This document shows, one piece after another, positions 1-50,729 of a DNA stretch of 64,000 nucleotides. Each line of letters opens with the position of its first letter. Position 1 is the stretch's first letter. The stretch lies in NCBI GenBank assembly GCA_965243855.1, contig CBDEWE010000003.1:1474610-1538609 (forward strand), read 5' to 3'. Source of the stretch: an uncultured Candidatus Binatia bacterium (lineage in GTDB: Bacteria > Desulfobacterota > Binatia > Bin18). The notes under the pieces are model-generated. The model did not search any database. It was given only the letters and a program-made list of their open reading frames with translations, and had not been told where the DNA came from. The position numbers and the translations under genes were made by a program.

Positions 1-120
1 CGAACCATCTTTGTCAATGACCACGCCTTCGGCCTGCAGAACGCCTTGTCCAAAAATTTCTACCTGGTCCAGAGAAAATGTCGTCACAGGTACGCTCCTT
101 TTGCTGTCCTCACGAGGCCG

Positions 121-537
121 TTACGGCGTCGTCAGACGCACCAGTTCCCCGTCCAGTTCAAGCGTAGTCTTGGAGTAGGTGAGTTTTTGAATGATCTTGC
201 CGTCTTTGAAGTGCAGGACATCGATGCCACGTCGGGCCTCGTGTTTTTTCTCCTGGCCCTTCTCAAACGAAGGCGAGTCGAGCTGCCACCGGTAGAGCAT
301 TTTTTGGTCTACCTCGTCGATGAAGGTCTCTTCGTCCGTAAATTTAAACCCCCCATGATTGGCAAACCAGGGGGTCCAGGCCTGGCGCAGATTCTCCTTG
401 CCTCTGACCCAGCCTCCGGTCCAGTTCTCGAAGTAAATTTCGTCGTGAAATAAATCCATCACGCCGTCGAGGTCGTGCTCGTTCCAGGCAACCCCCCATT
501 TGGCGAACGCGCTAGACATCTCGTCTCGTGTCAGCAT
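121..537 (-). CDS. SnoaL-like / NTF2-fold protein (ketosteroid-isomerase-like)
   Basis: 138-aa ORF of the size and hydrophobic-pocket pattern of NTF2/SnoaL proteins (WGVAWNEHDLDGVMDLF... start). It is tightly followed by an LLM oxidoreductase gene on the same strand. Confidence 0.5.
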   Translation of the reverse strand: MLTRDEMSSAFAKWGVAWNEHDLDGVMDLFHDEIYFENWTGGWVRGKENLRQAWTPWFANHGGFKFTDEETFIDEVDQKMLYRWQLDSPSFEKGQEKKHEARRGIDVLHFKDGKIIQKLTYSKTTLELDGELVRLTTP

Positions 538-590
538 GGTCTTCTCCTCCTTTCGGATGGTAGGAGCAATTCATGAATTGCCCCTACGTA

Positions 591-1475
591 TTACGATACA
601 TCTTGGACTTGCTTGGCAAACGATCGGACTTCCTGAGCAATACTATCCGGGTCGCGGCTGAGCGGAACGGTGTATAAGACTTTCACCCCAAGGTCGCGGT
701 AGGTTTTGATATCGTCCAGCGTGGTCCGGGTCGGGTCGGTCATGGCCGTCAGTTCGAGGTCGTCATAATTCCGTCCGGCCTCGTCCATGAGCCGTTTCAG
801 TTGCTCTAACATAGGCCGAATCTGGTTAAAGGTCAGCAGGGCAATATGCCATCCGTCACCGAACCGGGCCACCCGTTTCAGGGCGTACACCGACTCCCCT
901 CCAACCCAGATAGGGGGGTGGGGTTTCTGGAGGGGGCGCGGGAGCACATTGACATCTTCTTCCAGCTTGACGAACTCCCCCGCATAGCGCGGGCTGTCTT
1001 CGGTCCACAGCGCTTTCATCATCTCAATATATTCACGCGTGCGTTTGCCGCGGCGCTGAAAGGGAATGTCCAGCAGGTTGAACTCTTCTTCAAGCCAGCC
1101 TACTCCGGTGCCGAGAATGAAGCGCCCACCGGACAAGACATCGATGGTGGCGACCCGTCGCGCCACATCAAAAGGGTGGCGATAGGGGACAATCAGGACG
1201 CTCAGGCCGAGCCGGACCTTTTCGGTAATCCCTGCGAGAAAAGCTATGGTATCGAACGGGTCCAGCCATTCCATACTGGTGTAAATATCGTAATTCGGTT
1301 TTCCGTCGTTATACTCCTCATACGGCCACGGCGAGGCAATGGTTTTGGGCAGGACAATATGATCGCCAATGAGGAGCGAGTCGCAGCCTTCCTCCTCGGC
1401 AATACGGGCAACGTCCATGAGGACCTTCCGGTCACACACCGAAGCGCCGCCGGCTAAGTGTAAGCCGTATTTCAT
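591..1475 (-). CDS. LLM-class (luciferase-like) flavin/F420-dependent oxidoreductase
   Basis: 294 aa with LLM hallmarks (LGLSVLIVPYRHP, GRFILGTGVGW, EEEGCDSLLIGDH) of the TIM-barrel luciferase-like family. Confidence 0.75.
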   Translation of the reverse strand: MKYGLHLAGGASVCDRKVLMDVARIAEEEGCDSLLIGDHIVLPKTIASPWPYEEYNDGKPNYDIYTSMEWLDPFDTIAFLAGITEKVRLGLSVLIVPYRHPFDVARRVATIDVLSGGRFILGTGVGWLEEEFNLLDIPFQRRGKRTREYIEMMKALWTEDSPRYAGEFVKLEEDVNVLPRPLQKPHPPIWVGGESVYALKRVARFGDGWHIALLTFNQIRPMLEQLKRLMDEAGRNYDDLELTAMTDPTRTTLDDIKTYRDLGVKVLYTVPLSRDPDSIAQEVRSFAKQVQDVS

Positions 1476-1670
1476 GAATCCCCTCCTTTAGGCATCAATA
1501 GAGAATAAAACTGCCCACGTCGTAGCGAAAAGATCGGTCTCACGCAAGGGAGAATGCCCGGAGACGGTGACGGCCTTGCCTCTCTGTACGCCTTCCACGG
1601 TGTGGTCTTGCTTGACAGCCCGAAAGAGTTACTTCACAGTGATTTTATTGTGAATGCACAGCACAAGGTG

Positions 1671-2402
1671 ATGAGACGGATGGCAAGAACAGCCGCGCAC
1701 CGACGGAGCTCGTGGCTCTGGAACTGTTGCCTGCTGCTCGCTACGTGCTGTGCCTTTCTCCTCTCGGCCTGCTCGTCTAGTACTCCGCTTGACCGTCTGA
1801 AATCCCAACTCGCCTCCGCGCCGGAATACGCTATTATTCTCAGCGATATGCGCGAAGAGGGAACGTTCTTCTCTTCGTATTTCCATCAATACCAAGTGGT
1901 CCAAGGGGAAAACTCCTGGACCACTGACTGGTTGCAGGTCCCGGAATCCGTTTATCGCGCTAATGAGAATTTTCTCGGTATGACGCTCGCCTCCAAAACC
2001 CCTGACGGCGAGAATAATGTCCCCCATCCGCCCGGTTATGATTACGTTGGCAATCCGCGCTACGGCTCGTGGCAGACGAATAGCAGCGGTATGTCGTTCT
2101 GGGCGTTTTACGGCCAGTATGCGCTCATGCGCGACCTTCTCGGTATGGGACGGGGATCCATCTTCCGGAACGACTACGATTCCTATCAACGCTCGCGCTC
2201 GGAGCGACGGCCGTACTACGGCCGGACAGGAAGAGAATACGGGACGCGGGGCACGGTCACACAGCAACAGAAACCGTCTTTTTTCGCCCGCCGCCGCGCC
2301 CGGGATGCCGCGCAACGACAACGTTTCCAGCAAAAATTCAACAACCGCTTTGGGCGGAGCAGCGTTCCGACACGCTCGCGTGGCTTTGGCTTTGGCAAAT
2401 AA
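1671..2402 (+). CDS. hypothetical lipoprotein with an Arg-rich C-terminal tail
   Basis: Signal peptide with lipobox (LLSAC) after the Met at 1671. The mature part is Trp/Tyr-rich and the C-terminal region is RR/RG-rich. No recognisable domain. Confidence 0.45.
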   Translation: MRRMARTAAHRRSSWLWNCCLLLATCCAFLLSACSSSTPLDRLKSQLASAPEYAIILSDMREEGTFFSSYFHQYQVVQGENSWTTDWLQVPESVYRANENFLGMTLASKTPDGENNVPHPPGYDYVGNPRYGSWQTNSSGMSFWAFYGQYALMRDLLGMGRGSIFRNDYDSYQRSRSERRPYYGRTGREYGTRGTVTQQQKPSFFARRRARDAAQRQRFQQKFNNRFGRSSVPTRSRGFGFGK

Positions 2403-2418
2403 GCCGAAGAGGTAGGTC

Positions 2419-3264
2419 ATGACTCTGGACACTGTGATTCTGGCCAGTATCTATCTCCTGTCTGCCTATATCTTGTTCTGGTTGGGGAAGCGCGTATTTG
2501 ATTTTTTGCACCGCGATTTTCGCGTCCGCGAGGAATTGGTTGAGCGGAAAAATTCGGCCCTGGCTCTGGCTCTTGTGGGCTATTATCTCGGAGTCGTGTT
2601 TGCCATTGGCGGAGCTATTGTCGGTCCGTCGAGCGGCCTGGTTGACGATGTGCTCGATCTGTTTCTGTACGGTATATTGGCCATCATTCTGCTGAATATC
2701 TCCACGCTGGTCAGCGACCGCTTGATTCTCTTCCAGTTCAGCAACACCAAGGAGATCATTCAAGATCAAAACGCGGGAACGGGTGTCACCGCTGGGGGCG
2801 TGTACGCAGCTACCGGCCTGATTCTGTTCGGCGCTATTTCAGGGGAGGGCGGCACGGTCTGGACGGCGGTCGGCTTTTGGGGGTTGGGTCAATTGGCCCT
2901 GATTCTGACCGGGCTCGTGTACGAGTGGATCACACCGTACAGTATTCATGACGAGATCGAAAAGGATAATGTTGCCGTTGGGGTCAGCTTTGCCGGCGCG
3001 CTGCTGAGCATGGGCAATATCCTGCGCCATGCGCTGAGTGGCGATTTTTATTCCTGGCAGGCAAATCTGCTGACCTTCTGCTCCCTGGCCGTGATCGGCC
3101 TGGTGGCGCTGCCGATTATCCGCTGGGCTACGGACAAAGTGCTCTTACCCGGAACGACGATTACGGCCGAACTGGTGGAGCACGAACAGCCGAATCTCGG
3201 GGCTGCCTATATCGAGATGTTCTCCTATATTAGTGCGTCCTTTCTCATCACTTGGTGTCTCTAG
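2419..3264 (+). CDS. DUF350-type membrane protein (duplicated 4-TM module)
   Basis: 281 aa, multi-TM. Two similar halves with Gly-rich TM helices typical of DUF350. It overlaps the downstream spermidine-synthase-like gene. Confidence 0.55.
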   Translation: MTLDTVILASIYLLSAYILFWLGKRVFDFLHRDFRVREELVERKNSALALALVGYYLGVVFAIGGAIVGPSSGLVDDVLDLFLYGILAIILLNISTLVSDRLILFQFSNTKEIIQDQNAGTGVTAGGVYAATGLILFGAISGEGGTVWTAVGFWGLGQLALILTGLVYEWITPYSIHDEIEKDNVAVGVSFAGALLSMGNILRHALSGDFYSWQANLLTFCSLAVIGLVALPIIRWATDKVLLPGTTITAELVEHEQPNLGAAYIEMFSYISASFLITWCL

Positions 3265-4786
3265 TCTGCTGAAGCTGTGTCTGTTTGCCACAGGCTTGGC
3301 CGGCATAGTCGCCGAGTTTGTGCTGTGCACGCTTGCGACTTATTTCCTCGGCAACGCGGTGTTGCAGTGGACGCTGATGATGTCCTTCATGCTGTTTGCC
3401 ATGGGCCTGGGCAGCCATCTGAGCCGCTATTGCAGCGCCCATCTGCTGGATACCTTTACCATTCTCGAGTTCGCGCTGTCCCTACTGTGTGCCAGCGCCG
3501 CGGTTGCAGCCTATGTTCTATCTCCTTTTCTCAATAATGTGGGCGTGGTGATTTACCCGCTCGGCATCGCCATCGGCCTGTTAATCGGTATGGAGATTCC
3601 GCTTATTACGCGGGTCAACGCCACCTATGAAGAACTCCGGGTCAACATCTCTTCGGTGATGGAGAAGGATTATTACGGAGCGCTTATTGGGGGGCTGTTC
3701 TTTGCCTTTGTGGCCCTGCCGTATTTCGGATTGACCTATACTCCGATAGCGCTGGGTGCGGTGAACTTCGGGGTTGCCTCGCTCCTGTTGTTTCGCTTTC
3801 GGTCTTTGCTGAGCGCCCCGCGACTGCTGAGCGGCCTCTGGGCCGGGGTTGGCGCCGGGCTTATCGGACTGTTTGTCCTGGCGGAACCCATTCTCCTGTT
3901 TGGCGAGCAGGCCCTATATAAGGACACCGTTATCCTGGCCAAACAAACGCCCTATCAGCGGCTGGTGGTGACGCGCTGGCGGAATGATTACTGGCTCTAT
4001 ATTAACGGCAACCAGCAGTTCAGCAGCTACGATGAAGAGCGCTACCACGAACCGCTCGTCCATCCGGCTATGGTTTTGGCCGGCAATCGCGCAGAGGTGC
4101 TCATTCTCGGCGGGGGTGATGGGTTGGCGTTACGGGAAGTGCTCAAATACTCCCAAGTCCAAGCCGTGACTCTGGTTGATCTTGACCCGGAGATGACGAG
4201 CCTGGCCGCCACCCATCCGGTCTTCTTGCAACTCAACTCACACGCCTTCGCCGACCCTCGGGTGTCGGTTGTTAATGCCGATGCCTTTGCCTTTCTCCAG
4301 GACTCGCTGCAGTTATTCGACGTGATTATTATTGACTTGCCCGACCCGAACTCCGCGGAACTGGCCCGGCTGTATTCGCTCAACTTCTACCGACTGGGCA
4401 AGAAGCATCTCAAACGGGGCGGCACCCTGGTCACGCAGGCGACCAGCCCGTTTTTCAGCCGTCAGGCTTTTGTGTGTATCCAGAAAACGATAGCGGAAGC
4501 CGGCTTCAGCGTTTTGCCCTACCACAACCATATCCCGACGTTAGGCGAGTGGGGCTTCGTGCTAGGGGTGGATGCCGAACTGCTTGAATCTGCGACCCTG
4601 AAGAAAACCGTACAAGGGTTGTCTTTCCAAGAGGTTGAGACGCGCTTTCTCAACCAGGAGGCGATGATTGCCATGGTGCATTTTGGGAAGGATGTCTTTC
4701 GGGACGCGGGCGAGATTGAGGTGAATCGGGAGAGCCGGCCTGTTTTACCGTCGTATTATCAGCAGGGCCGGTGGGAGGTGTATTAG
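3233..4786 (+). CDS. membrane-anchored spermidine/spermine synthase-like protein (polyamine aminopropyltransferase family)
   Basis: N-terminal ~7 TM helices followed by a spermidine-synthase fold (GGGDG AdoMet-binding motif VLILGGGDGLALREVLKY, DVIIIDLPDP motif). Confidence 0.75.
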   Translation: MRPFSSLGVSSLLKLCLFATGLAGIVAEFVLCTLATYFLGNAVLQWTLMMSFMLFAMGLGSHLSRYCSAHLLDTFTILEFALSLLCASAAVAAYVLSPFLNNVGVVIYPLGIAIGLLIGMEIPLITRVNATYEELRVNISSVMEKDYYGALIGGLFFAFVALPYFGLTYTPIALGAVNFGVASLLLFRFRSLLSAPRLLSGLWAGVGAGLIGLFVLAEPILLFGEQALYKDTVILAKQTPYQRLVVTRWRNDYWLYINGNQQFSSYDEERYHEPLVHPAMVLAGNRAEVLILGGGDGLALREVLKYSQVQAVTLVDLDPEMTSLAATHPVFLQLNSHAFADPRVSVVNADAFAFLQDSLQLFDVIIIDLPDPNSAELARLYSLNFYRLGKKHLKRGGTLVTQATSPFFSRQAFVCIQKTIAEAGFSVLPYHNHIPTLGEWGFVLGVDAELLESATLKKTVQGLSFQEVETRFLNQEAMIAMVHFGKDVFRDAGEIEVNRESRPVLPSYYQQGRWEVY

Positions 4787-4794
4787 GGCGTAAT

Positions 4795-5346
4795 CTACGA
4801 TTGTTCCCGTGGCAGAATATGGGAGAACTCGTACTCGTTGACGTATTTGCCGACGGAGGCTTCAAATTCGTCTTCGTCCCACTGTTCGATGGTCAGGGTG
4901 TGGTCTTCCGACGCGTCCATATAATCCCAATAGATCATCTCATCGCCGGCAACCCGGCCGTTGGGATGATAATAGCCGGCCCCACTTTCGGCTAACCGAA
5001 AACGTATGCCTTGATATTCGATTTCCTCAGGCGGATCGTCATGCTGCTTAATATGCGCCCGAACACCTTGACCCAGGGCTGAAAAATCTATTTTGCGAGA
5101 GATATTCCATTCGACGCCATCGTCCTCTTCGCGCTCGAGGAAGAGCGCATCGTCCCCGGCGTCGAGTTCCCACTCCTGCGTCTTGGTGTCGTCAAAGGTA
5201 TAGTTATTCTGACTTTTGACCTGCCAGGTCTTGAGGTCATAGTCGACCAGATAGCCGACTTTCAGGTTTGAGAGGGTGAGATCACTGAGCGGGTCGATAT
5301 CCACTTGCTCGTCTTTTTTGCCAAAGAGTTTCTTCCAGAGAGACAT
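4795..5346 (-). CDS. DUF4178 domain protein
   Basis: Acidic, Trp-rich soluble protein starting MSLWKKLFGKK. Length and motif pattern are typical of DUF4178 proteins that accompany DUF350/SpeE-like and PspA genes. Start chosen at the internal Met. Confidence 0.5.
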   Translation of the reverse strand: MSLWKKLFGKKDEQVDIDPLSDLTLSNLKVGYLVDYDLKTWQVKSQNNYTFDDTKTQEWELDAGDDALFLEREEDDGVEWNISRKIDFSALGQGVRAHIKQHDDPPEEIEYQGIRFRLAESGAGYYHPNGRVAGDEMIYWDYMDASEDHTLTIEQWDEDEFEASVGKYVNEYEFSHILPREQS

Positions 5347-5447
5347 ATGTTCACCCGAAAAATCCCTTCCCCTTCCCAGGAACCAGCGCTCGCCGGACGT
5401 GGGGGACGGCCGGGCCGAGGATAACCCACCCCGCCGCTGACGCGGCA

Positions 5448-5503
5448 CAAAGAGGAAACGTGTCCCGCATTGAGGGCTGTTTGGAGGACACGTTTCCTCT
5501 TTC
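5448..5503. repeat. family-A palindromic intergenic element, copy 1
   Basis: AGAGGAAACGTGTCC ... GGACACGTTTCCTCT arms (15 bp) around a ~21-bp loop. Lies between the DUF4178 gene and pspA. Confidence 0.9.
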
Positions 5504-5627
5504 CCTCCGAGGAGGGGATAAAAAAAGCTCCACTCTTGGGAGGGGTGGTCCTGAGCTTGTCGAAGGACCGGTGTGGGTGCCTTTTCGCATTACACGTCCG
5601 AGGAGGGGAAAGCGTTTCAACACAGGG

Positions 5628-6335
5628 CTATGCCGAAATCCCCATCTTAGCCTTGAGCGCGGTCAGGGAATCATTCGCCGTGGCGTTGCTTTGGCTCAGG
5701 GCCGCATCAATCTCGTTGTCCACGCTTTTATCGATATCGGCGACCTGGCCGTACGCCTGGGCCAAGGACTCGTCTTCCTCGACCTTGTCGCGCATCTTTT
5801 CCAGCATGGCAATCGTGCTGGAGGAGTCGATCTTGGCAAGCTGCTGGTTGATCTTCTTGGTCGAGGCTGCCGTGCGTGCCCGGGCCTTGAGGGTAATGAG
5901 ATCGTTCTCATATTTGGTAATCGTGGATTTCAGCTTCTCGATCTTACCCTGCAACTGGTTGGCCATATTGTCTTGATTTTCCCAGTCTTTCAGCGCCTGG
6001 GCAGCTTTCTGGCTGGATTCTTCTTTCTTTTTCAGAGCCTCTGTCGCCAAGCGCTCGGCTTCGGCCTGATCCATCTCACCACCCTGCATCTTTTGCAGCA
6101 GCAGCATGGCCTTGCGCTCATACTCGGCGGCCAGAGATTTGCTGCTATCCCCATCCTTTTTCAGGCGAATAGCGACGCTTTTGACCTCGGCCAAACTGGT
6201 CATGCTGGCTTGGAGATCGTTCTTGAGGTCGCGGATACCCTGCTCGGTCATACGGATAGGGTCCTCCATATTGTCAAGAACGGCGTGGGCTTCGGATTGT
6301 CCAATTTTAAATAAGCGTTGAAAAAAACCTGCCAT
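5628..6335 (-). CDS. pspA: PspA/IM30 family protein (phage-shock protein A-like)
   Basis: 235 aa, all-helical coiled coil. The N-terminus MAGFFQRLFKIGQSEAHAVLDNMEDPIRMTEQGIRDLK matches the conserved PspA/Vipp1 N-terminal amphipathic helix and first coiled coil. Confidence 0.85.
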   Translation of the reverse strand: MAGFFQRLFKIGQSEAHAVLDNMEDPIRMTEQGIRDLKNDLQASMTSLAEVKSVAIRLKKDGDSSKSLAAEYERKAMLLLQKMQGGEMDQAEAERLATEALKKKEESSQKAAQALKDWENQDNMANQLQGKIEKLKSTITKYENDLITLKARARTAASTKKINQQLAKIDSSSTIAMLEKMRDKVEEDESLAQAYGQVADIDKSVDNEIDAALSQSNATANDSLTALKAKMGISA

Positions 6336-6365
6336 AGTCTGTTCCTCCAGATTGATTAGTGCTTG

Positions 6366-6420
6366 AAAGAGTAAACGTGCCCAGCATCTGCATATTTATT
6401 GGAGGACACGTTTACTCTTT
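6366..6420. repeat. family-A palindromic element, copy 2
   Basis: AAAGAGTAAACGTGCCCAGCATCTGCATATTTATTGGAGGACACGTTTACTCTTT. Lies between pspA and the ybjN-like gene. Confidence 0.9.
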
Positions 6421-6809
6421 GTATAGGAGAGTAATTCTCCCGCATTCTCGGCCAAAGCCAAACTCAGTGCTTCAATCGAGCCTTCCAACTCATTGCTGTC
6501 CAGATTCTCGATGCGTAGCGTGTCACGAAAAAGGATGGTCTGCGTCTCTTCGTCCACCACAAAGGCGCCATGCACCAGAAGCCGGTTCATCTGCAGCAGG
6601 CGCCGGAATAAATTCCCCGGCTCCTGCGGAATGGGCATAATGACCTGCTCCAACACGAGCAGGGGGTCTTCGCAGTCAACGATGAGGTTGTTGATGCCGC
6701 TGTCTTCGTCATCGACGATAAACAACTCCTGGCCTTCGTCCTCTTGCGAAATCGCATAACCTAAATCAATCAGCAGCGATTTTACTTTCCCAAAATACTC
6801 TGACGGCAT
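6396..6809 (-). CDS. YbjN-domain protein (putative sensory transduction regulator fold)
   Basis: About 137 aa, acidic, with a YbjN-like pattern (GYAISQEDEGQELFIVDDEDS...LLVLEQVIMP). A GGAGGA ribosome-binding site sits 8 nt upstream of the Met at 6809. Confidence 0.55.
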   Translation of the reverse strand: MPSEYFGKVKSLLIDLGYAISQEDEGQELFIVDDEDSGINNLIVDCEDPLLVLEQVIMPIPQEPGNLFRRLLQMNRLLVHGAFVVDEETQTILFRDTLRIENLDSNELEGSIEALSLALAENAGELLSYTKSKRVLQ

Positions 6810-6827
6810 ACGTCGCTTCCTCCACAT

Positions 6828-7856
6828 TTATCCCTGGTTGGGGCGTTCCTGTCCGATAACGATGAGTTGATCTTCAGCCTGAATTATATAGTCGCTCGGC
6901 GGGTTTGCAAGAAACCTCGCCTGTGCCTGGCTTTCTACGGCTACAAGCAGGAGATTCTGTGCTCTTTTCAGTTCGGTCAGGGCGTCCATAAAAGAATGGC
7001 CAACGCAGGATTGCGGCACGGAAATGGTGTACAGGGCGCTCCCGAAGCGGTTGCTGACGAGTTCGTTGACCAGCAGGGGCACGCCACGGTTCAAGGCGGC
7101 CTGGACAAGCAAGTTGGTGCTCAATGCGCCGGTGACGATAACCTCATCCGCCTTTGCCCGCTTGCCGTGAGAAATATTTTTCTGGTCAAGCAGTTCGATG
7201 CAAATATACAGGCTCGGATAGGTGGTCTTGATGGTGAGCGTATCCAGGATTGTCGTGGCGTCCCGTGTATGGACCTCACCCTGTTCATCCGCCAGCACAA
7301 TGGCGACTTCCGCCTTTTGGGCATTGGCCCGTGCCAAGGTTTCCGGGCTGACGACTCCGCTGACAAATTGGACCTGTTCACCGTCCAAAGGATTCTCCGG
7401 TAAGTCGGCGATCAGCACAATCGAACGGTTCCGGGCTTTTTCGTCGGCTCTGACCTCTTCAATAATTTCCTTGGCCTTATAATTCCAGCCGCACAGGACA
7501 ATATGTCCCGTATTTGAGAGCGGTTTCATCCCTTTTCCCTCCTGCCGCCGGTTTTCAACAAAGGTGCTGGCTAAGGTGGCCGTCAGCATACCCAGAAACC
7601 CGATGCCGAACAGCATCAGAAAGATGCCGACGATCCGGCCTCCCAGCGAGGTCGGGTAGATATCGCCATAGCCGACCGTGGTAATGGTCACGAGCGTCCA
7701 CCATACCGCGTCCACCACAGATAACTGCGGCTCAAAAAACGAGATGCCCATCACCCCGCTGACGGCGATGACAACCAGCACCAAGAGGACTACGTCCAAA
7801 TGGTCTTTCCGTAGCTGGTGGGCGAAGCGTCTCAAAAGGACCAGGATAGTGGGCAT
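6828..7856 (-). CDS. K+ channel with RCK/TrkA-N domain (MthK-like)
   Basis: Two TM helices plus a pore helix with the canonical selectivity filter TVGYGD, then a Rossmann RCK domain (HIVLCGWNYKAKEIIEEV). Confidence 0.85.
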   Translation of the reverse strand: MPTILVLLRRFAHQLRKDHLDVVLLVLVVIAVSGVMGISFFEPQLSVVDAVWWTLVTITTVGYGDIYPTSLGGRIVGIFLMLFGIGFLGMLTATLASTFVENRRQEGKGMKPLSNTGHIVLCGWNYKAKEIIEEVRADEKARNRSIVLIADLPENPLDGEQVQFVSGVVSPETLARANAQKAEVAIVLADEQGEVHTRDATTILDTLTIKTTYPSLYICIELLDQKNISHGKRAKADEVIVTGALSTNLLVQAALNRGVPLLVNELVSNRFGSALYTISVPQSCVGHSFMDALTELKRAQNLLLVAVESQAQARFLANPPSDYIIQAEDQLIVIGQERPNQG

Positions 7857-7865
7857 GAGGACAGA

Positions 7866-8267
7866 TTATGATTTGTCCGGCTTTTCCACGGGAAGCCCGG
7901 CCTCGGCCCAGCCGTTAAAACCGGCTTCCAGATGCGCAATATTGGGAAAACCCATATCTTGTAAAGCATCGGCAGCCAGCGCCGACCGACCACCTGCGGC
8001 ACAGTACACGACAATACGTTTTTCGGGATCAACTTTTCCGGTACAATACTGAGAAGACGGGTCGAGCCAGAATTCCAGCATTCCACGCGGCACATGCATG
8101 GCGCTAGGAATCCAGCCCAGCTTCTGCCGTTCACGCACGTCTCGAATGTCAAGAAGCTGCGTCTCTCCGGACTCTAATTCCTGTTGTAACTGTCCCACGG
8201 ACAGGTTCTCAATACGCGTCTTTGCCTCCTCAACTATCTGCTCCGCGGTCTTCTTGAGTTTGAACAT
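7866..8267 (-). CDS. rhodanese-domain sulfurtransferase
   Basis: 133 aa with a rhodanese active-site loop (VVYCAAGGRSA) containing the catalytic Cys. Confidence 0.8.
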   Translation of the reverse strand: MFKLKKTAEQIVEEAKTRIENLSVGQLQQELESGETQLLDIRDVRERQKLGWIPSAMHVPRGMLEFWLDPSSQYCTGKVDPEKRIVVYCAAGGRSALAADALQDMGFPNIAHLEAGFNGWAEAGLPVEKPDKS

Positions 8268-8372
8268 ACCAGTCCTTTCTGCTGCATCTCCGCTGCAATG
8301 CTAGAAGGTTTCCTCAAGCACGGCTACTCCCTGTCTATGGATCGGAGCCTACATCTGTCTCCACATGTCTGC

Positions 8373-8642
8373 TTACTCCGGACGACAGGTCAGGCTATCC
8401 CGGGGAGCGTTCTGACAGGCAATGGTGTCGGTGACACCCGAGGCGAGCAGGGCGCAGGCATTGGTAATCGCCGCCATCTGGGCCTCATGCTCTGTCGCTC
8501 CGTCCACCTCGCGGCAGACCTGACGGCCGTGGAAGGTGATACAGACCTCACACCGCACCCCGCCTATCTGAAACGTCGAGTACACGACGATAGCCATCAC
8601 CGCCAGAATAATGCCAAGTGCCACCCAACTCGTCCGCTTCAT
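8373..8642 (-). CDS. hypothetical small membrane-anchored Cys-rich protein
   Basis: 89 aa with an N-terminal TM helix and six Cys including a CxxC (RCEVC). No recognisable family. Confidence 0.3.
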   Translation of the reverse strand: MKRTSWVALGIILAVMAIVVYSTFQIGGVRCEVCITFHGRQVCREVDGATEHEAQMAAITNACALLASGVTDTIACQNAPRDSLTCRPE

Positions 8643-8693
8643 AGTCAGGTCATATTCCTTTGTTTGTGAGACTGCTATATTTCCGCACGAACA

Positions 8694-8748
8694 AAAGAGT
8701 AAACGTATCCAGCATCTGTATGTCTATTGGAGGACACGTTTCCTCTTC
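8694..8748. repeat. family-A palindromic element, copy 3
   Basis: AGAGTAAACGTATCCAGCATCTGTATGTCTATTGGAGGACACGTTTCCTCT. Confidence 0.9.
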
Positions 8749-8796
8749 GGTGTGTAGCATAGCTCAAAATGCTCCGCAGCCGCTCCCACATCACCT

Positions 8797-10098
8797 ATGA
8801 ACTGGATTTGGTTCGGCCTTATTGTCGGTTCTGTTGTGACCGCCGCTTTTACCGGCAAGATGGCTGAGGTTACGGCTGCCTCAATAGACTCGGCAAAGTC
8901 CGCGGTGACACTGGCCATCGGTCTGGTCGGGGTGATGGCCTTTTGGTTGGGTATGCTGCGCATTGTGCAAGTTGGCGGTTTTCTGCACACCCTGGCGCGC
9001 TGGCTGCGTCCCCTCATGGTGCGATTGTTTCCTGACGTTCCGGCTGATCACCCGGCTCTGAGCGCCATGATTATGAATATCGCATCCAATATGCTGGGTC
9101 TGGGCAACGCGGCTACTCCCTTCGGTATCAAGGCTATGCAGGAGCTTGATAGCCTCAATCCTCATAAAGGCACGGCGACCAACGCTATGGCCTTATTCCT
9201 GGCTATCAATACCTCGAATGTTGCCTTGGCTCCCCTTGGTGTGATTGCGCTAAGGGCGTCGATAGGGTCAGAAAACGCGGCGGGTATTTGGCTGCCCACG
9301 CTGCTGGCCACCTCATTCTCGACCTGCGTTGGTATTCTCGCGGCCAAGCTCTTGCAGGGACTCCCCGTATTCAGCGCGGGCGACCGAGCCGCTGAGCAGG
9401 AAGAAAATACCTCTGAGATCGACTTGCCGGAAGAGGAAACACTGGGTGCTGAGCAGCCGACTTCCCGACCGGGCTGTCTGCTGGCCCTCTTGTCTGTTGG
9501 AGCGATTGGGGTCGCCTTTCTCTTGTTCCTGCAATCCGGCTTGAGCGACGGTCAGCCGATTGGTCCGCTGCTACGTAACGCCGTATCGGGCTGGCTTTTG
9601 CCAGTGCTGATCGTGGTGATGCTCGGCTACGGCATTGCCAAAAGAGTGGCTATGTACGATGCCATGATCGAAGGAGCAAAAGAGGGCTTCCAGGTGGCTA
9701 TTAGGATTATTCCGTTTCTTGTCGCCATTCTTGTTGCCGCTGGCATGTTTCGGGCTTCGGGTTTATTAGATGTGATGATCGCTGGCGTGCAGCCTGTTCT
9801 GGGCCTTATCGGATTTCCCGCCGAGGCATTGCCGATGGCCATCCTGCGGCCCTTATCCGGCTCTGGCGCCTACGCTATTATGGCCGAGATCCTGCAAGCC
9901 GAAGGGCCGGACAGTCTGGTTGGCTATCTCGTTTCCACACTCCAGGGCAGCACAGAAACGACTTTCTACGTTTTGGCCGTGTATTTTGGTGCGGTTGGCG
10001 TGGTCCGCATTCGACACGCCTTGGTCGCCGGATTGACCGCAGATATCGCTGGGGTTATCGGAGCAGTTATCGCCGTCCAGTGGCTATTAATAGGATGA
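8797..10098 (+). CDS. nucleoside-recognition (Gate) domain membrane protein, SpmA/SpmB-like fusion
   Basis: 433 aa polytopic membrane protein with two Gate-type halves. The Gly-rich motifs resemble spore-maturation A/B and FeoB-gate family proteins. Confidence 0.55.
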   Translation: MNWIWFGLIVGSVVTAAFTGKMAEVTAASIDSAKSAVTLAIGLVGVMAFWLGMLRIVQVGGFLHTLARWLRPLMVRLFPDVPADHPALSAMIMNIASNMLGLGNAATPFGIKAMQELDSLNPHKGTATNAMALFLAINTSNVALAPLGVIALRASIGSENAAGIWLPTLLATSFSTCVGILAAKLLQGLPVFSAGDRAAEQEENTSEIDLPEEETLGAEQPTSRPGCLLALLSVGAIGVAFLLFLQSGLSDGQPIGPLLRNAVSGWLLPVLIVVMLGYGIAKRVAMYDAMIEGAKEGFQVAIRIIPFLVAILVAAGMFRASGLLDVMIAGVQPVLGLIGFPAEALPMAILRPLSGSGAYAIMAEILQAEGPDSLVGYLVSTLQGSTETTFYVLAVYFGAVGVVRIRHALVAGLTADIAGVIGAVIAVQWLLIG

Positions 10099-10142
10099 CA
10101 GCCACTGGACGATATTCGTATCACGATTTTTTCAGACAGAGA

Positions 10143-11627
10143 TTACTCAGGAGATGGGGCCGTTTGGGCGCCAGTGCGTAATTCTTCCACATCGTCCGGG
10201 TCGGGCATGACAACAAACTCCGGATAGGCTTCGATGCCGAGCTCCATGGCATCCTGGCCGACCTCTTCGACGCTGCGCGAAACTCGGACCCCAAGGGTCT
10301 TTTCCAGTGCCAGCCAGACTCCCCACGAAGTCACGAAGACGAACACGCCCACGGCCACCACTCCGAGGATCTGTACGCCGATATTGCCGCCCGCCGCGAT
10401 GCAGACTGCCAGCGTTCCCCAAGCACCGGCGAACATATGGGCTGGAATCGCACCGACTACATCGTCCAGCTTCATATTCTCCAGCAGCCTCATGCCGCCC
10501 AGACATACCACCCCGCCAATCGCTCCGATGATGACCGCCCAATACGTCTCCACAATATCCGGTCCTGCGGTAATAGAGACGAGGCCGGCAATCGCCCCGT
10601 TGAGAACGGCAAGCAGGTCGATTCGCCCGAGTAAGGGGCGTGAGACGCATAAGGCAGCCACAACCCCCGCGGCCGCCGCAAGGTTCGTGTTGGCAAGTAC
10701 ATTACTCATGGCCACAGCGTCAGTCACGCCACCCAGGGCGAGTTGTGAGCCACCGTTAAAGCCAAGCCAGCCAAACCACAGAATGAGCACGCCTAATGTC
10801 ACGAACGGGACGTTCGAGGGAGGGGTGGGTTTGACGCTGCCGTCAGGTCGGAATTTACCCATTCGTGGACCCACGACTATGGCACCGGCCAGCGCCGCCC
10901 AGCCGCCGGTCGAATGGACGATAGTGGAGCCGGCAAAGTCCTGAAACCCCATTTCATTCAGCCAGCCTCCACCCCAAGTCCAGGCTCCAATAATGGGATA
11001 GATGATTGCCGTCAAAACGGTTGTGAAGGCAAGAAACGACCACAGCCTGACCCGTTCGGCCAGGGTGCCGGATACAATCGAGGCAGCCGTCGCGACAAAG
11101 ACCATCTGGAAGAACCAGTCCGACATGACGGCGTAGCCGTTGGCGATGACAGCGGCCAGAGCCTCTGTCTGGTCGGACAACAGGGCCAGTTCATCGGCCG
11201 AAGGGCCGTACAGAAGGGTCACCGAGCCGACCCAGGACCCGACATCGACGTACATCAGATTGTAGCCGATGAAGTAGTAGGCCAGTCCTGCAACCGAGTA
11301 CAGCCCGATATTCTTGAGACAGATCACAGAAGCATTCTTCGTGCGCACCGAGCCCGACTCCAGCATGGTAAAGCCCGCACACATCCACATCACCAGCGCT
11401 CCCCAGATGAGAAACGAGAAGGTGTTCAGAACAAACTGTGACTCTTCATCCACGGCCGCCTGTGCAGCATCAGCCTGTAACAGGATGCTGAAAGCCACTA
11501 GCAACGCTCCTGTTCTCACGACACTCCGACCGGCGCTCCCTCGTCCATCTCTGCCTCTGTTCATGCTCGCCTCCAATCCTGTTTCGACTAACTGGCTGCC
11601 ACAAGAACTACGAACAAGCGGGTGCAT
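10143..11627 (-). CDS. amt: ammonium transporter (Amt family)
   Basis: 11 TM helices with Amt signature regions (DFAGSTIVHSTGGWAALAGAIVVGPRMGKF; the twin-His region VLNGAIAGLVSITAG). Signal-peptide-like N-terminus. The true start may be the internal Met at ~11561. Confidence 0.9.
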   Translation of the reverse strand: MHPLVRSSCGSQLVETGLEASMNRGRDGRGSAGRSVVRTGALLVAFSILLQADAAQAAVDEESQFVLNTFSFLIWGALVMWMCAGFTMLESGSVRTKNASVICLKNIGLYSVAGLAYYFIGYNLMYVDVGSWVGSVTLLYGPSADELALLSDQTEALAAVIANGYAVMSDWFFQMVFVATAASIVSGTLAERVRLWSFLAFTTVLTAIIYPIIGAWTWGGGWLNEMGFQDFAGSTIVHSTGGWAALAGAIVVGPRMGKFRPDGSVKPTPPSNVPFVTLGVLILWFGWLGFNGGSQLALGGVTDAVAMSNVLANTNLAAAAGVVAALCVSRPLLGRIDLLAVLNGAIAGLVSITAGPDIVETYWAVIIGAIGGVVCLGGMRLLENMKLDDVVGAIPAHMFAGAWGTLAVCIAAGGNIGVQILGVVAVGVFVFVTSWGVWLALEKTLGVRVSRSVEEVGQDAMELGIEAYPEFVVMPDPDDVEELRTGAQTAPSPE

Positions 11628-11678
11628 GCAGTCTCAGGCAAGGCCAGACTCATGCATTTATTCTAGGGAGGGAAGTCC

Positions 11679-11990
11679 TCAGACCGACAAGGTTTCGGAC
11701 TTCTCTACCGTATATTTCTTTGCATCCAGGGCTCCCGCCAGCAGGCTAGGGGCTTCTTTGAGAAAATTTTGCAGATGCTCGGTCTGAAAGTGGGCGGCAA
11801 GCGCCTCTTCCGACTCCCATTCCTCGAAGAGGAAGAAGGTATGTTCGGTGGTTGCCGCAGTGTGGAATTGATAACTGATGCAGCCCGGCTCTTTGAGCGT
11901 CTCCTCCACCATGTTCGCAGCAAGTGCCTTGGCGTCATTCCAGCGTTCGGCCTTGACCGGGATTGTCCCCGCAATAACGATCATGCGCAT
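11679..11990 (-). CDS. ABM (antibiotic-biosynthesis-monooxygenase-like) domain protein
   Basis: 103 aa with a ferredoxin-like ABM pattern (ISYQFH...FFLFEEWESEEALAAHFQTEH). Confidence 0.65.
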   Translation of the reverse strand: MRMIVIAGTIPVKAERWNDAKALAANMVEETLKEPGCISYQFHTAATTEHTFFLFEEWESEEALAAHFQTEHLQNFLKEAPSLLAGALDAKKYTVEKSETLSV

Positions 11991-12180
11991 CCTCCTTATC
12001 CGTTGAAAGATCGGTCGGCTAAGATCACGGTAGACTTGAACTCAGGAGAGAAGAAGAAAGCGGGAAATAATACAAGGGGATGTAACCGGAGTCAGACTTT
12101 ATGCATAGAACTACCGGTAACGTCTGTCAAACAAATAATTTTTTGAAACCGTCTGAGGAATGAATTACAAAAATAAATAT

Positions 12181-12194
12181 TAGACTATAGTCAG
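12181..12194. promoter_or_regulatory. TAGACTATAGTCAG palindrome upstream of the enoyl-CoA hydratase gene
   Basis: Same GACTATAGTC core, about 145 bp upstream of the 12329 start codon, in an AT-rich promoter region. Confidence 0.4.
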
Positions 12195-12328
12195 AAACGA
12201 ACATTCCAGAATTTTGGGGTTATCCATTCAGTTAAAAATGGACACTTTCCGACATGCCTGCTTTGTGAACTTCACGAGAAAAGCAGGGAAAGATGCAGTG
12301 AGGGTCATATCACCAGAAGGAGGGCGCG

Positions 12329-13198
12329 ATGTCGGATTTTGAATCTATTATGTATGAGACCCCTGTGGAGCATATAGCTCGCATTGTATTGAACCGGCCA
12401 GAAACTCGAAACGCACAGGATACCAAGCTGCTGTATGAATTGAATGCGGCCTTTGACCGTGCGGCACAAGATGATGCCATCAAGGTCATTATCCTGGCTG
12501 CAAACGGACCTCATTTTTCGTCCGGCCATGATCTGCGAGAGCCTAAAGTGTACGAGAAAATGTCTGAATTCGAGACGGTGGGAACCTGGTGCGGGTTTAC
12601 CTGTGCGGGTGCCGAGAGGCAGATGGCGCGCGAGAAAGAAATCTACGTTGGCTTTTGTGAACGCTGGCGTAATATTCCCAAGCCAACGCTGGCCGCAGTA
12701 CAAGGCAAGGTTATTGCCGGAGGACTGATGCTGATCTGGCCCTGCGATATCATTATCGCCAGCGGCGATGCGCAATTCTGCGACCCGGTGGTGAACTTTG
12801 GTATTGGCGAGGTAGAGTTTTTCGCTCACCCCTGGGAAGTCGGCGCGCGGAAGGCCAAAGAGATGCTCTTCACCTCAGACTGGATATCGGTCGAAGAGGC
12901 GAAGCAACTCGGCATGGTAAATCAAATCGTCCCTCGGGAGAAACTCGACGAAACCGTATTAGCCATGGCCCAAAAGATTGCAAAAAAATCCCTGTTTGCC
13001 CTGAAGCTGACCAAAGAGGCGGTCAACGTGGCGGAAGATGCGCAGGGTCGAGTCCAATCCATGCAAACGTCTTTTGCCTTGCATCAACTTGCCCACACCC
13101 ACTGGCTGGAGCAGTATGGCGTACTCTTGGACCCAACCGGCTTACCGCCTGAAACGGCCAAAGCCATCGGCGCAAAACTCAAGCAGAAAGAGACCTGA
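12329..13198 (+). CDS. enoyl-CoA hydratase/isomerase (crotonase) family protein
   Basis: 289 aa with crotonase-fold oxyanion-hole motifs (VIILAANGPHFSSGHDL; AAVQGKVIAGGLMLIWPCDIIIAS). Confidence 0.8.
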   Translation: MSDFESIMYETPVEHIARIVLNRPETRNAQDTKLLYELNAAFDRAAQDDAIKVIILAANGPHFSSGHDLREPKVYEKMSEFETVGTWCGFTCAGAERQMAREKEIYVGFCERWRNIPKPTLAAVQGKVIAGGLMLIWPCDIIIASGDAQFCDPVVNFGIGEVEFFAHPWEVGARKAKEMLFTSDWISVEEAKQLGMVNQIVPREKLDETVLAMAQKIAKKSLFALKLTKEAVNVAEDAQGRVQSMQTSFALHQLAHTHWLEQYGVLLDPTGLPPETAKAIGAKLKQKET

Positions 13199-13205
13199 GG
13201 ACGAG

Positions 13206-13260
13206 CAAAGAGGAAACGTGTCCAGCATCTCAACGCTATTGGAGGACTCGTTTCCTCTTC
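13206..13260. repeat. family-A palindromic element, copy 4
   Basis: AGAGGAAACGTGTCCAGCATCTCAACGCTATTGGAGGACTCGTTTCCTCT. Lies between the convergent enoyl-CoA hydratase and LLM genes. Confidence 0.9.
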
Positions 13261-23474: not shown

Positions 23475-23530
23475 AAAAGAGTAAACGTGTCCTCCAATAG
23501 ACAGGCAGATGCTGGACACGTCTACTCTTT
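23475..23530. repeat. family-A palindromic element, copy 5 (inverted loop orientation)
   Basis: AGAGTAAACGTGTCCTCCAATAGACAGGCAGATGCTGGACACGTCTACTCT. Lies between the DMGO-like gene and coxG. Confidence 0.9.
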
Positions 23531-27699: not shown

Positions 27700-27786
27700 T
27701 GTTGAGTCGGTTGAGTCTTGACCCAAAAGACTCAAAAGACTCAAAAGACTCAATAGACTCAATAGACCCAATAGACCCAAAAGACT
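27700..27786. repeat. family-B tandem-9-mer palindromic element, copy 1
   Basis: GTTGAGTCG GTTGAGTCT TGACCCAAAA then GACTCAAAA x3, GACTCAATA x2, GACCCAATA, GACCCAAAA. The left 9-mers are the reverse complement of the right 9-mers. Lies upstream of coxL. Confidence 0.9.
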
Positions 27787-29565: not shown

Positions 29566-29817
29566 ATGGCAACAAAAAAAGATATCGCCCTGGTAAGAGA
29601 ATTACGGCCCAGTAACCCAACGGAAGAACAGGTACCAGCCAAGGAGCCCTCCCTCATAGAAGAATTTCGGCTCACGAGCCTGGCAGCGGAATTTGAGCAG
29701 CATAGCCAAGCAGAAATCGAACGTTTGGGTGGTGAGAATCCTGATTTTGACGAGCAACTCTACCACGAAGCCGTTTCCCTCGTCCTGCGGAAACTCAGCC
29801 GATATCGAAAAGAGTAA
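29566..29817 (+). CDS. hypothetical small acidic protein
   Basis: 83 aa with no recognisable domain. Its 3' end runs into a family-A palindromic repeat. Confidence 0.3.
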   Translation: MATKKDIALVRELRPSNPTEEQVPAKEPSLIEEFRLTSLAAEFEQHSQAEIERLGGENPDFDEQLYHEAVSLVLRKLSRYRKE

Positions 29818-29858
29818 ACGTAGCCTCCAATTGAGATGCTGGATACCTTCACTCTTTT
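29809..29858. repeat. family-A palindromic element, copy 6 (degenerate, inverted)
   Basis: AGAGTAAACGTAGCCTCCAATTGAGATGCTGGATACCTTCACTCTTTT. Immediately upstream of the SMC-like ATPase gene. Confidence 0.75.
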
Positions 29859-32144: not shown

Positions 32145-32150
32145 GGGTCC

Positions 32151-32225
32151 TTTGAGTCGATTGAGTCCATTGAGTCCATGAGGCTCAACAGACCCAACAG
32201 ACCCAACAAACTCAATAGGCCCATA
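32151..32225. repeat. family-B element, copy 2
   Basis: TTGAGTCGA TTGAGTCCA TTGAGTCCA TGAGGCTCAACA GACCCAACA GACCCAACA AACTCAATA GGCCCAT. Lies between the SMC-like ATPase and acyl-CoA dehydrogenase genes. Confidence 0.9.
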
Positions 32226-33392: not shown

Positions 33393-33443
33393 ATGAGTAA
33401 ACGTATCCAGCATCTGCATGTTTATTGGAGGACACGTTTACTT
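33393..33443. repeat. family-A palindromic element, copy 7
   Basis: GAGTAAACGTATCCAGCATCTGCATGTTTATTGGAGGACACGTTTACT. Lies between the acyl-CoA dehydrogenase and SDR genes. Confidence 0.9.
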
Positions 33444-33526
33444 ATCGGGACAGCATAAGAGTGAGCGGTTGCTCTTATGCTGCTCGGTCTTTGAGGGGCC
33501 AGTCGGCCCTGACTGAAGGAGGGCCC

Positions 33527-39400: not shown

Positions 39401-40226
39401 TAACTTCGATATCCGAAAACATCTGCTGGAATATGATGATGTGATTAACAAACAGCGTGAAGTCATCTATGAGCAGCGCCGGGGATTCCTGGCCGGTGAA
39501 AATTTGAAAGGTCAGGTACTGGAAATTGTTGAAGAGATGGCTGAAGAAAGTGTGCTGAACTATGCGGATAAAGGAATCGACCCGGCGGAGTGGGACTGGA
39601 AAGGGCTTGATGACACGGTGTTTCGCCAATTCAATATGCGTCTTGGCTTGAGTGAGGAACAGCAAGAAGAGCTGATAACGGAAGATCTCCAGGACCTTGT
39701 GCGAGACCGGGCGCTCCAACACTATGAAGAACGAGAACAGGCTTTTACACCACCTGTTATGCGGTATCTCGAAAAGGTGATCATGCTACAAACCATGGAC
39801 AGTCTGTGGAAAGACCACCTGTTTGCCATGGACCACCTTAAAGAGGGGATTGGTCTGCGCGGCTACGGTCAGAAAAACCCCCTGCAAGAGTACAAGAAAG
39901 AGGCATTCAGTCTGTTCGACGACCTCTCCCGTCGGATGCAGGAAGATATTGTTGAAAAGCTCTATAGCGTCCAGGTGGCCCGCCAGGAAGATGTCCAGCG
40001 GATGGAGGAAGGGCAGGCTGCACAACGGCCTATGCAGATGATGCACGGCGGACAGGCAACGCTCCAACAACCACAGTCGGCAACACGACCTATGCAGGGG
40101 GGACCGAATGGACAGCCACAGACGGAACGACCTGTCCAAGCCGTACGGGATACGCCCAAGGTTGGTCGGAACGCACCCTGTCCGTGTGGTAGCGGCAAGA
40201 AATACAAGAAGTGTCACGGCGCATGA
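36489..40226 (+). CDS. secA: preprotein translocase ATPase SecA, with a ~300-aa insertion in NBD2 and a C-terminal zinc finger
   Basis: [21 protein letters not shown] start. DEAD-motor motifs ([13 protein letters not shown]; DEVD; [10 protein letters not shown]; [27 protein letters not shown]). C-terminal [14 protein letters not shown]. 1245 aa versus about 900 aa for typical SecA. Confidence 0.95.
38511..38586. repeat. family-B element, copy 3, inside the secA coding sequence and in frame
   Basis: GTTGAGTCC GTTGAGTCA TCGAGTCG GTTGAGTCT TGACCCCAAAGACCCTAAAGACTCAACAGACCCAAAAGAC, translated as [25 protein letters not shown] within SecA. Confidence 0.9.
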
Positions 40227-45963: not shown

Positions 45964-46017
45964 AAAGAGTAAACGTGTCCAGCATCTGCCTGTCTATGGG
46001 AGGATACGTTTACTCTT
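45964..46017. repeat. family-A palindromic element, copy 8
   Basis: AAAGAGTAAACGTGTCCAGCATCTGCCTGTCTATGGGAGGATACGTTTACTCTT. Lies between gatC and yraN, 70 bp from a family-B copy. Confidence 0.9.
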
Positions 46018-46085: not shown

Positions 46086-46178
46086 CGTTGAGTCCGTTGA
46101 GTCTTTAGGGTCTTTGGGGTCAAGACTCAACAGACCCAATGACTCAACAGACCCAATGACTCAACAGACCCGAAAGAC
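46086..46178. repeat. family-B element, copy 4
   Basis: GTTGAGTCC GTTGAGTCT TTAGGGTCTTTGGGGTCAAGACTCAACAGACCCAAT GACTCAACAGACCCAAT GACTCAACAGACCCGAAAGAC. Lies between gatC and yraN. Confidence 0.9.
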
Positions 46179-50675: not shown

Positions 50676-50729
50676 AAAGGGTAAACGTATCCAGCATCTC
50701 ATATCTATAGGAGGACACGTTTACTCTTT
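50676..50729. repeat. family-A palindromic element, copy 9
   Basis: AAGGGTAAACGTATCCAGCATCTCATATCTATAGGAGGACACGTTTACTCTTT. Directly after the petD-like stop. Confidence 0.9.

Follow-up and report, generated by a model that had tools for sequence, protein, structure and literature searches.

PspA, Vipp1 and ESCRT-III proteins form a conserved machinery of membrane repair. Comparative genomics has described operons in which a CesT/Tir-like gene is paired with a PspA-family gene. In the "second major group" of these, with Shewanella oneidensis SO_3765 as archetype (Ravi et al. 2024, mSystems, PMC11237479), the gene order is LipoSIG+Ctha_1186+Low-comp > YjfL-TM > TM+Spermine_synth > CesT_Tir > PspA > DUF4178 > RHH, and the terminal RHH transcription factor is present 'in some cases'. 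For a sister type, the "third group" of CesT/Tir-PspA polyamine operons, the same study reported a ligand-gated K+ channel in Alteromonas. Here we analysed a stretch of DNA from an uncultured Candidatus Binatia bacterium (contig CBDEWE010000003.1, positions 1,474,610 to 1,538,609; this whole 64-kb stretch is called the window below), in which a block of genes at 1554-8267 combines the second-group gene set with a gene for an MthK-like K+ channel. We put the probability at about three in four that this block is the Binatia version of the polyamine-linked, second-group CesT/Tir-PspA membrane-stress module, laid out as two convergent units, supplemented by a channel and serving cation balance and membrane repair.

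Open reading frames (ORFs) were listed and ten proteins from 1554-10098 were scanned with hidden Markov models (HMMs) of Pfam and NCBIfam. The block consists of the following genes:

1554-2402, plus strand: lipoprotein, first gene of the plus-strand unit; predicted start ~1671-1680; no Pfam or NCBIfam match
2419-3264, plus strand: multi-pass membrane protein with double DUF350 (YjfL family); Pfam PF03994, E 1.1e-53
3233-4786, plus strand: multi-pass membrane domain fused to a SpeE-like polyamine aminopropyltransferase; Spermine_synth, E 8.7e-40
4795-5346 (ORF to 5448), minus strand: DUF4178 protein, last gene of the minus-strand unit; PF13785, E 1.8e-27
5628-6335, minus strand: PspA/IM30 (ESCRT-III superfamily); PF04012, E 3.1e-40, 138.6 bits
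6396-6809 (ORF to 6827), minus strand: CesT/Tir-like (YbjN-fold) protein, putative PspA partner of chaperone type; PF22550 CesT_Tir_1, E 1.8e-46
6828-7856, minus strand: MthK-like K+ channel with a two-transmembrane (2TM) pore plus RCK; Ion_trans_2, E 2.1e-17, and RCK domains (Pfam)
7866-8267, minus strand: single-domain rhodanese; PF00581, E 1e-19

Read 5' to 3', the minus-strand unit runs rhodanese > K+ channel > CesT-like > PspA > DUF4178. The plus-strand unit, lipoprotein > double DUF350 > SpeE-like aminopropyltransferase, is convergent with it, and the stop codons of the SpeE-like and DUF4178 genes face each other with 8 nucleotides (nt) between them. Gene spacing in the block is operon-like. 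On the plus strand, 16 nt separate the lipoprotein ORF from the DUF350 gene, and the DUF350 and SpeE-like ORFs share ~32 nt. On the minus strand, the gap between rhodanese and channel is 9 nt, the channel stop abuts the first ATG of the CesT-like ORF (0 nt, or 18 nt to the likelier start behind GGAGGA), 60 nt lie between the CesT-like gene and pspA, and 281 nt between pspA and DUF4178. The original prediction for this locus had named seven contiguous genes, from DUF350 to the rhodanese. Their contiguity and the overlap of the DUF350 and SpeE-like genes were borne out by the ORF listing, and HMM searches supported all seven assignments (DUF350, SpeE-like, DUF4178, PspA, YbjN, RCK K+ channel, rhodanese). 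The membership was incomplete, as an eighth conserved gene, that of the lipoprotein, had been overlooked. DUF4178 had been called convergent, which holds relative to the SpeE-like gene only; otherwise it is the terminal gene of the minus-strand unit. The YbjN-like, channel and rhodanese genes had been placed downstream of pspA. Since transcription of the minus strand proceeds towards lower coordinates, they are in fact upstream.

Genes for a double DUF350 protein, a membrane-fused spermine/spermidine synthase, a CesT/Tir-like protein, PspA and DUF4178 are common to the window and the second group of Ravi et al., and the window lipoprotein is a probable counterpart of the one with a low-complexity tail in that group. 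The joint occurrence of PspA, DUF4178, DUF350 and a SpeE-like membrane protein, named in the original prediction, is a published operon type that the window matches (Ravi et al. 2024, PMC11237479). Compared to this group, the window adds the MthK-like channel immediately upstream of the CesT-like gene and the rhodanese. Its genes stand in two convergent units, whereas the archetype is one operon, and it has no RHH gene (none at 4786-4795 or in the flanks), which is an optional feature. In addition, the CesT-like protein matches PF22550, while that of Shewanella is labelled DUF2170. With the third group (yjfIJKLMC-type) the window has in common the CesT/Tir-PspA dyad, polyamine metabolism, a DUF350 protein and, in the case of Alteromonas, the K+ channel. 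However, the block contains no ATP-grasp peptide-spermidine ligase, DUF2491, DUF1190 or DUF2170 YjfI-type partner by Pfam, and the channel gene lies downstream of PspA in the Alteromonas third group but upstream of the CesT-like gene here. In the library of papers searched, Ravi et al. was alone in connecting a K+ channel with PspA; the word "channel" does not occur in Popp et al. 2022. The coupling of an ion channel to PspA had been presented as departing from textbook arrangements: the link is real in this locus, but its precedent in the third group makes that description overstated. What is new here is a conserved MthK-like channel added to the second-group gene set, the channel-PspA link itself being already known from the sister operon type.

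The sole experimental handle on CesT-PspA dyads is the Bac system of Pseudomonas aeruginosa, which likewise carries a CesT-fold gene directly upstream of a PspA-family gene. There, loss of the CesT-fold protein BacA raises the other Bac proteins, indicating negative control, and osmotic shock increases the PspA-like BacB (PMC10948618). The system differs from the window in that BacA belongs to the DUF2170 family, the operon partners are of first-group type, and there is no channel, SpeE or DUF4178. E. coli pspABCDE resembles the window in combining, within one transcription unit, a rhodanese with a PspA-family effector. In contrast to E. coli, the window has no PspB, PspC, PspD, PspF or sigma-54 promoter (the PspB, PspC and PspF families found no match among the ten scanned proteins), and its rhodanese is predicted to be cytoplasmic and non-orthologous to PspE.

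To follow the channel gene through other genomes, 13 relatives of the protein were aligned, the alignment was used to fetch 80 genome loci, and the window proteins were mapped onto these by tblastn. Linkage was counted over 77 full-length channel relatives, and the genomes nearest to the window were metagenome-assembled genomes of Candidatus Binatia. The channel adjoins module genes in 63 of the 77 relatives. In 60, the channel (Kch), CesT-like and PspA genes follow one another in this order on one strand, and 54 of those 60 also have DUF4178 after PspA. Judged by their record titles, the linked loci fall into six groups: Binatia, Nitrospirota, Planctomycetota (Scalindua), Desulfobacterales, KSB1 and Acidobacteriota (Vicinamibacteria). 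Recurrence of the same order and orientation in six phyla is well beyond chance, and the locus is real. Genes beyond the module vary from locus to locus. In Vicinamibacteria and KSB1, a single strand carries DUF4178 > lipoprotein > DUF350 > (SpeE) > Kch > CesT > PspA, which places the channel gene inside the operon, between SpeE or DUF350 and CesT. Pairwise distances of channel and PspA correlate with a Pearson coefficient of 0.93, and the neighbour-joining trees of the two proteins agree, both putting Nitrospirota at the same two separate positions. This agreement fits inheritance as a cassette. The 14 channels without module genes nearby belong mostly to a cyanobacterial and Desulfobulbales clade, plus three short contigs. 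Thus, our results show that the channel has been inherited with CesT-PspA-DUF4178 as one cassette across six phyla. The synteny of the channel with pspA proposed in the original prediction is present in related genomes.

The channel comprises a 2TM K+ pore and a full C-terminal RCK domain. Its family profile aligns end to end with MthK (E 3.5e-37), and the selectivity filter TVGYGD is invariant in the 13 aligned relatives. MthK, the Ca2+-gated K+ channel of Methanothermobacter, has this architecture and filter in common with the window channel, but it carries the acidic Ca2+ ligands D184, E210, E212, E248, E266 and D305. Of these, the window channel surely keeps E210 only (as E221) and possibly D184, whose equivalent is ambiguous in the family (LAD[ED] motif). 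The other ligand positions are non-acidic in the 63 linked channels (E212 = L/V/M, E248 = I/V, E266 = K/T, D305 = N). Judged from these residues, the ligand of the channel is probably not Ca2+ bound as in MthK.

PspA is matched by PF04012 over residues 4-230 (Pfam), and residues 3-231, its full length, align to Vipp1/PspA structures (E 5.6e-13). The N-terminus MAGFFQRLFKIG, read straight from the sequence, is an amphipathic segment, and GGAGG sits 8 nt 5' of the pspA ATG. Against the PspA equivalog TIGR02977 the protein scores 48.7 bits, below the cut-off of 242.95, and it is 26% identical to E. coli PspA. Membership in the YjfJ family was considered and rejected, the similarity to YjfJ being confined to the N-terminal 78 residues. 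By these comparisons, the protein is orthologous neither to E. coli PspA nor to YjfJ and is no closer to YjfJ than to PspA.

The CesT-like gene lies directly upstream of pspA on the same strand (PF22550 followed by PF04012). Its likely start is M7 at 6809, behind GGAGGA, while the ORF runs to 6827; database homologues measure 131-137 amino acids (aa), and one CesT-like database match (P0121) is 100% identical. The protein also matches YbjN (E 2.9e-6) and CesT (E 1.1e-4) in Pfam and has no similarity to E. coli YjfI (E 0.16). An AlphaFold2 (AF2) model from a shallow alignment was unusable (pLDDT 51), and PDB sequence searches returned no match for this protein or for DUF4178. The CesT-like fold is thus a Pfam-based assignment only. 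Homologues of the DUF4178 protein begin at MSLWKK (5346) and not at the ORF end (5448). Its AF2 model (pLDDT 91) predicts a soluble, beta-rich protein of two tandem five-strand beta units, for which Foldseek finds no solved structural relative. As an independent sample, we took seven contexts anchored on DUF4178 homologues of 38-50% identity. The order CesT_Tir_1 > PspA > DUF4178 was kept in all seven.

A small J-domain gene was observed directly upstream of the CesT-like gene in KSB1, some Vicinamibacteria and channel-less modules (L059, 7396-7764; L087, 6453-6884; L088, 5033-5440; L083, 3324-3686; also L053, L054, L069, L075 and L080). Where a channel is present, the gene stands between channel and CesT; it is absent from the window. 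The N-terminus of its product (MSxFSRxxxxLRAxL) resembles the PspA amphipathic helix. A J-domain gene beside a PspA module recalls the remodelling of VIPP1 by Hsp70/CDJ2 in chloroplasts.

The lipoprotein at the head of the plus-strand unit probably starts at M40/M43. It has a signal peptide with the lipobox LLSAC (Cys73), a single hydrophobic segment and a basic, Arg-rich, conserved C-terminal tail ending in RSRGFGFGK. Homologues with signal peptide, Cys and the same tail adjoin DUF350 in Binatia, Scalindua, KSB1 and Vicinamibacteria, and the tail pattern ...YGTNGTVTQ..PSFF.RRQAR...RSRGFGFGK is kept across phyla (homologues in L009-L078). By this pattern the tail does not look like random low complexity. 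With its conserved position, conserved domain, lipobox and basic tail, the protein is a probable counterpart of the 'LipoSIG+Ctha_1186+Low-comp' gene product described by Ravi et al. 2024. The DUF350 protein contains two DUF350 stretches in 281 aa (Pfam). A crude hydropathy scan gave five segments above threshold, versus the eight transmembrane segments of the YjfL-family description. In the tblastn-mapped loci, its gene is conserved beside that of the SpeE fusion. This fusion, designated a 7TM-aminopropyltransferase, has a multi-pass membrane N-terminal part (at least six hydrophobic segments), a Spermine_synth domain at residues 268-446 and a score of 586 bits against NCBIfam PRK03612 (polyamine aminopropyltransferase; cut-off 472). 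The SpeE domain is closest to Thermus thermophilus SpeE, its nearest solved structure (3ANX/1UIR, E 2e-35), and to thermospermine synthases, and it retains the catalytic motifs GGGDG and DLPDP. In other genomes, a flavin amine oxidase adjoins the module (L069, 12714-16150; L082, 14544-16082; L083, 4943-6475), and a second SpeE-like gene lies beside it in Vicinamibacteria. Both strengthen the polyamine link.

From these components, a working of the module can be proposed. PspA, as an ESCRT-III-type polymer, would attach to strained or leaky membrane from its inner side and seal it. The CesT-like protein, as a dimer, may keep PspA unassembled or restrain the system, the analogue being BacA of P. 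aeruginosa. Through its RCK domain, the channel would sense a cytoplasmic ligand and adjust K+ flux and, with it, membrane potential and turgor. Lipoprotein, DUF350 protein and membrane aminopropyltransferase might make or transfer polyamine at the membrane and so stabilise it. The cytoplasm has K+ and polyamines as its two principal cations, which makes it probable that the module ties cation balance to the repair of membranes. The label "membrane-potential / envelope-stress module" given in the original prediction is reasonable as an inference. A further step would give the RCK-gated channel the part of sensor or trigger in a bacterial ESCRT-III repair system: a change in an ion or ligand that results from membrane damage, or from the polyamine product of the aminopropyltransferase, would gate the channel, and K+ flux or direct contact with the RCK domain would then govern the release of PspA by its CesT-like partner. 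We regard this as a doubtful extension. If true, channel-triggered release of PspA would parallel ion-triggered ESCRT-III membrane repair in eukaryotes and the polyamine block of Kir channels. Inheritance of a ligand-gated K+ channel within the module across six phyla links PspA to ion flux and polyamines in a concrete way that experiments can address. The channel is amenable to electrophysiology, and the CesT-PspA dyad and CesT-PspA-DUF4178 triad, made up of small soluble proteins, lend themselves to binding assays. The advance is an incremental one: a channel-PspA link was previously reported for the sister operon type.

Several observations weigh against reading the block as a channel-containing membrane-stress module. 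Only two of the seven DUF4178-anchored modules contain the channel and five do not; the published Shewanella archetype has none either (Ravi et al. 2024, PMC11237479). The two-in-seven count makes the channel a conserved accessory of one large subclade rather than a universal member. In many genomes, the channel-PspA half has no polyamine half beside it. Of the six MthK Ca2+ ligand positions that were checked, the channel retains only one or two. The agreement of the channel and PspA trees could partly mirror shared species history. Co-transcription in the window is left unproven by a hairpin repeat before pspA and a sigma-70-like match in the channel gene (both described below). Finally, the operon type has been described by comparative genomics, and its working is proposed here from gene content.

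We then weighed other explanations of the block. It could be mainly a unit of cation and osmotic homeostasis, in which the aminopropyltransferase sets membrane-proximal polyamines, the channel balances charge or turgor, and PspA merely protects, repair being secondary. The place of K+ and polyamines as main cytoplasmic cations speaks for this, as do the polyamine genes that recur around the module (SpeE; the amine oxidase in L069, L082 and L083) and the accumulation of the PspA-like BacB of P. aeruginosa on osmotic shock (PMC10948618). However, it is CesT-PspA-DUF4178 that is invariant in the seven DUF4178-anchored samples, while the channel and the adjacent polyamine half are dispensable. This explanation is a possible one, to which we give clearly less weight than to the coupling of cation balance with membrane repair, and it overlaps the latter instead of excluding it. 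Far less probable is that the channel is an unrelated housekeeping gene that happens to adjoin pspA. K+ channels are common, and the 14 relatives of the 77 without module genes nearby, mostly from cyanobacteria and Desulfobulbales, would fit such a view. But 60 loci of six phyla keep order and strand while the genes further out change, the channel gene lies within same-strand operons, the channel and PspA trees agree, and in the window only 0-18 nt separate it from the CesT-like gene. We consider a chance neighbourhood very unlikely.

The rhodanese calls for a similar judgement, since its place just before the channel gene (same strand, 9 nt apart) and its catalytic Cys loop (VYCAAGGRS, with the core CAAGGRS, within the PF00581 match) would suit a working module member in the role of E. 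coli PspE; E. coli pspABCDE likewise ends with a rhodanese. Searches by tblastn and phmmer over 88 loci placed it in front of the channel gene in the terminal Binatia clade alone (nine orthologues). L004 holds a truncated remnant and L015 a rhodanese at the same site that is just 35% identical, and the gene is absent from L008, L009 and all more distant loci. Furthermore, it scores 16.6 bits against PspE models with cut-offs of 102 and 126.3, and no transmembrane or signal segment was found, whereas PspE is periplasmic. By sequence, the window protein is predicted to be of the cytoplasmic, catalytic single-domain type, and its likeness to pspE of E. coli does not reflect homology. It is best read as a recent lineage-specific addition and not as a conserved module member; a PspE-like role is unlikely. 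The original prediction had counted it as a syntenic partner of pspA, which is true of the nearest Binatia only. Even less credible, and in our view extremely improbable, is a classical phage-shock system (PspF/sigma-54 regulated, with PspB/C sensing) or an anti-phage abortive-infection module. A PspA-family protein is present, and an ion channel could in principle kill or arrest the cell. Yet there are no PspB, PspC or PspF genes, and PspA lies far below the equivalog cut-off. The sigma-54 pattern has no match in the relevant intergenic regions and fewer matches in the window as a whole than expected by chance. PADLOC gave generic domain matches only and none to a meaningful defence system.

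The remaining features near the block are two hairpin repeats and a small ORF:

5449-5501, no strand: palindromic hairpin repeat in the pspA-DUF4178 spacer, REP-like; dG -29.8
6366-6422, no strand: palindromic hairpin repeat at the junction of CesT-like gene and pspA, REP-like
8373-8642, minus strand: small ORF with a transmembrane segment and a Cys-rich part, context only; no family match

The two hairpins bracket pspA, as the original prediction had noted for its Family-A repeats, but they belong to a genome-wide family that is not specific to pspA. These REP/MITE-like palindromes of ~50-57 nt with a stem of 17-18 bp have nine copies in the window (5451-5500, 6368-6418, 8696-8746, 13209-13258, 23478-23528, 29811-29855, 33394-33444, 45966-46016 and 50678-50727). 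The site at 5449-5501 is occupied in only some close relatives (L001, L010), and that at 6366-6422 carries a copy in L004, L010 and L047 and none in most relatives. Since the same sites are filled in some Binatia relatives and empty in others, the hairpin is mobile and genome-wide and no part of the module. The final seven codons of the CesT-like ORF, together with its stop, come from the copy at 6366-6422. The protein is 137 aa long here versus 132 aa in many relatives because the hairpin rewrites its C-terminus.

A scan for sigma-70 promoters gave three matches versus 3.6 expected, which is not above chance. One sigma-70-like match (10/12; TTGCAA, 16 nt spacer, TATAAT) lies at 6910-6883 on the minus strand, inside the 3' end of the channel gene, and the CesT-like start follows ~75 nt further downstream. 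This match may serve CesT-PspA-DUF4178 as an internal promoter. A terminator scan found nothing at the ends of the transcription units, and Rfam found nothing relevant in 1-12000.

The ORF at 8373-8642 encodes 89 aa with one transmembrane segment and a Cys-rich domain and has no Pfam or NCBIfam match. By tblastn, it lies directly upstream of the rhodanese or the channel, in Binatia-type loci only. Elsewhere in the window, G+C is 0.43 at 12001-12500, just upstream of an enoyl-CoA hydratase gene (12329-13198), versus ~0.55 in the rest. The window also has a second family of repeats, built of 9-nt tandem units (GACTCAAAA / GACCCAAAA) beside a TTGAGTC...GACTCAA palindrome, at 27720-27786, 32147-32223, 38547-38586 and 46123-46171, with inverted arms at 38512-38580 / 46088-46156. 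One copy is in frame and translated inside a 1245-aa SecA ORF (36489-40226). This SecA is unusually long and has an insertion that splits its P-loop domain.

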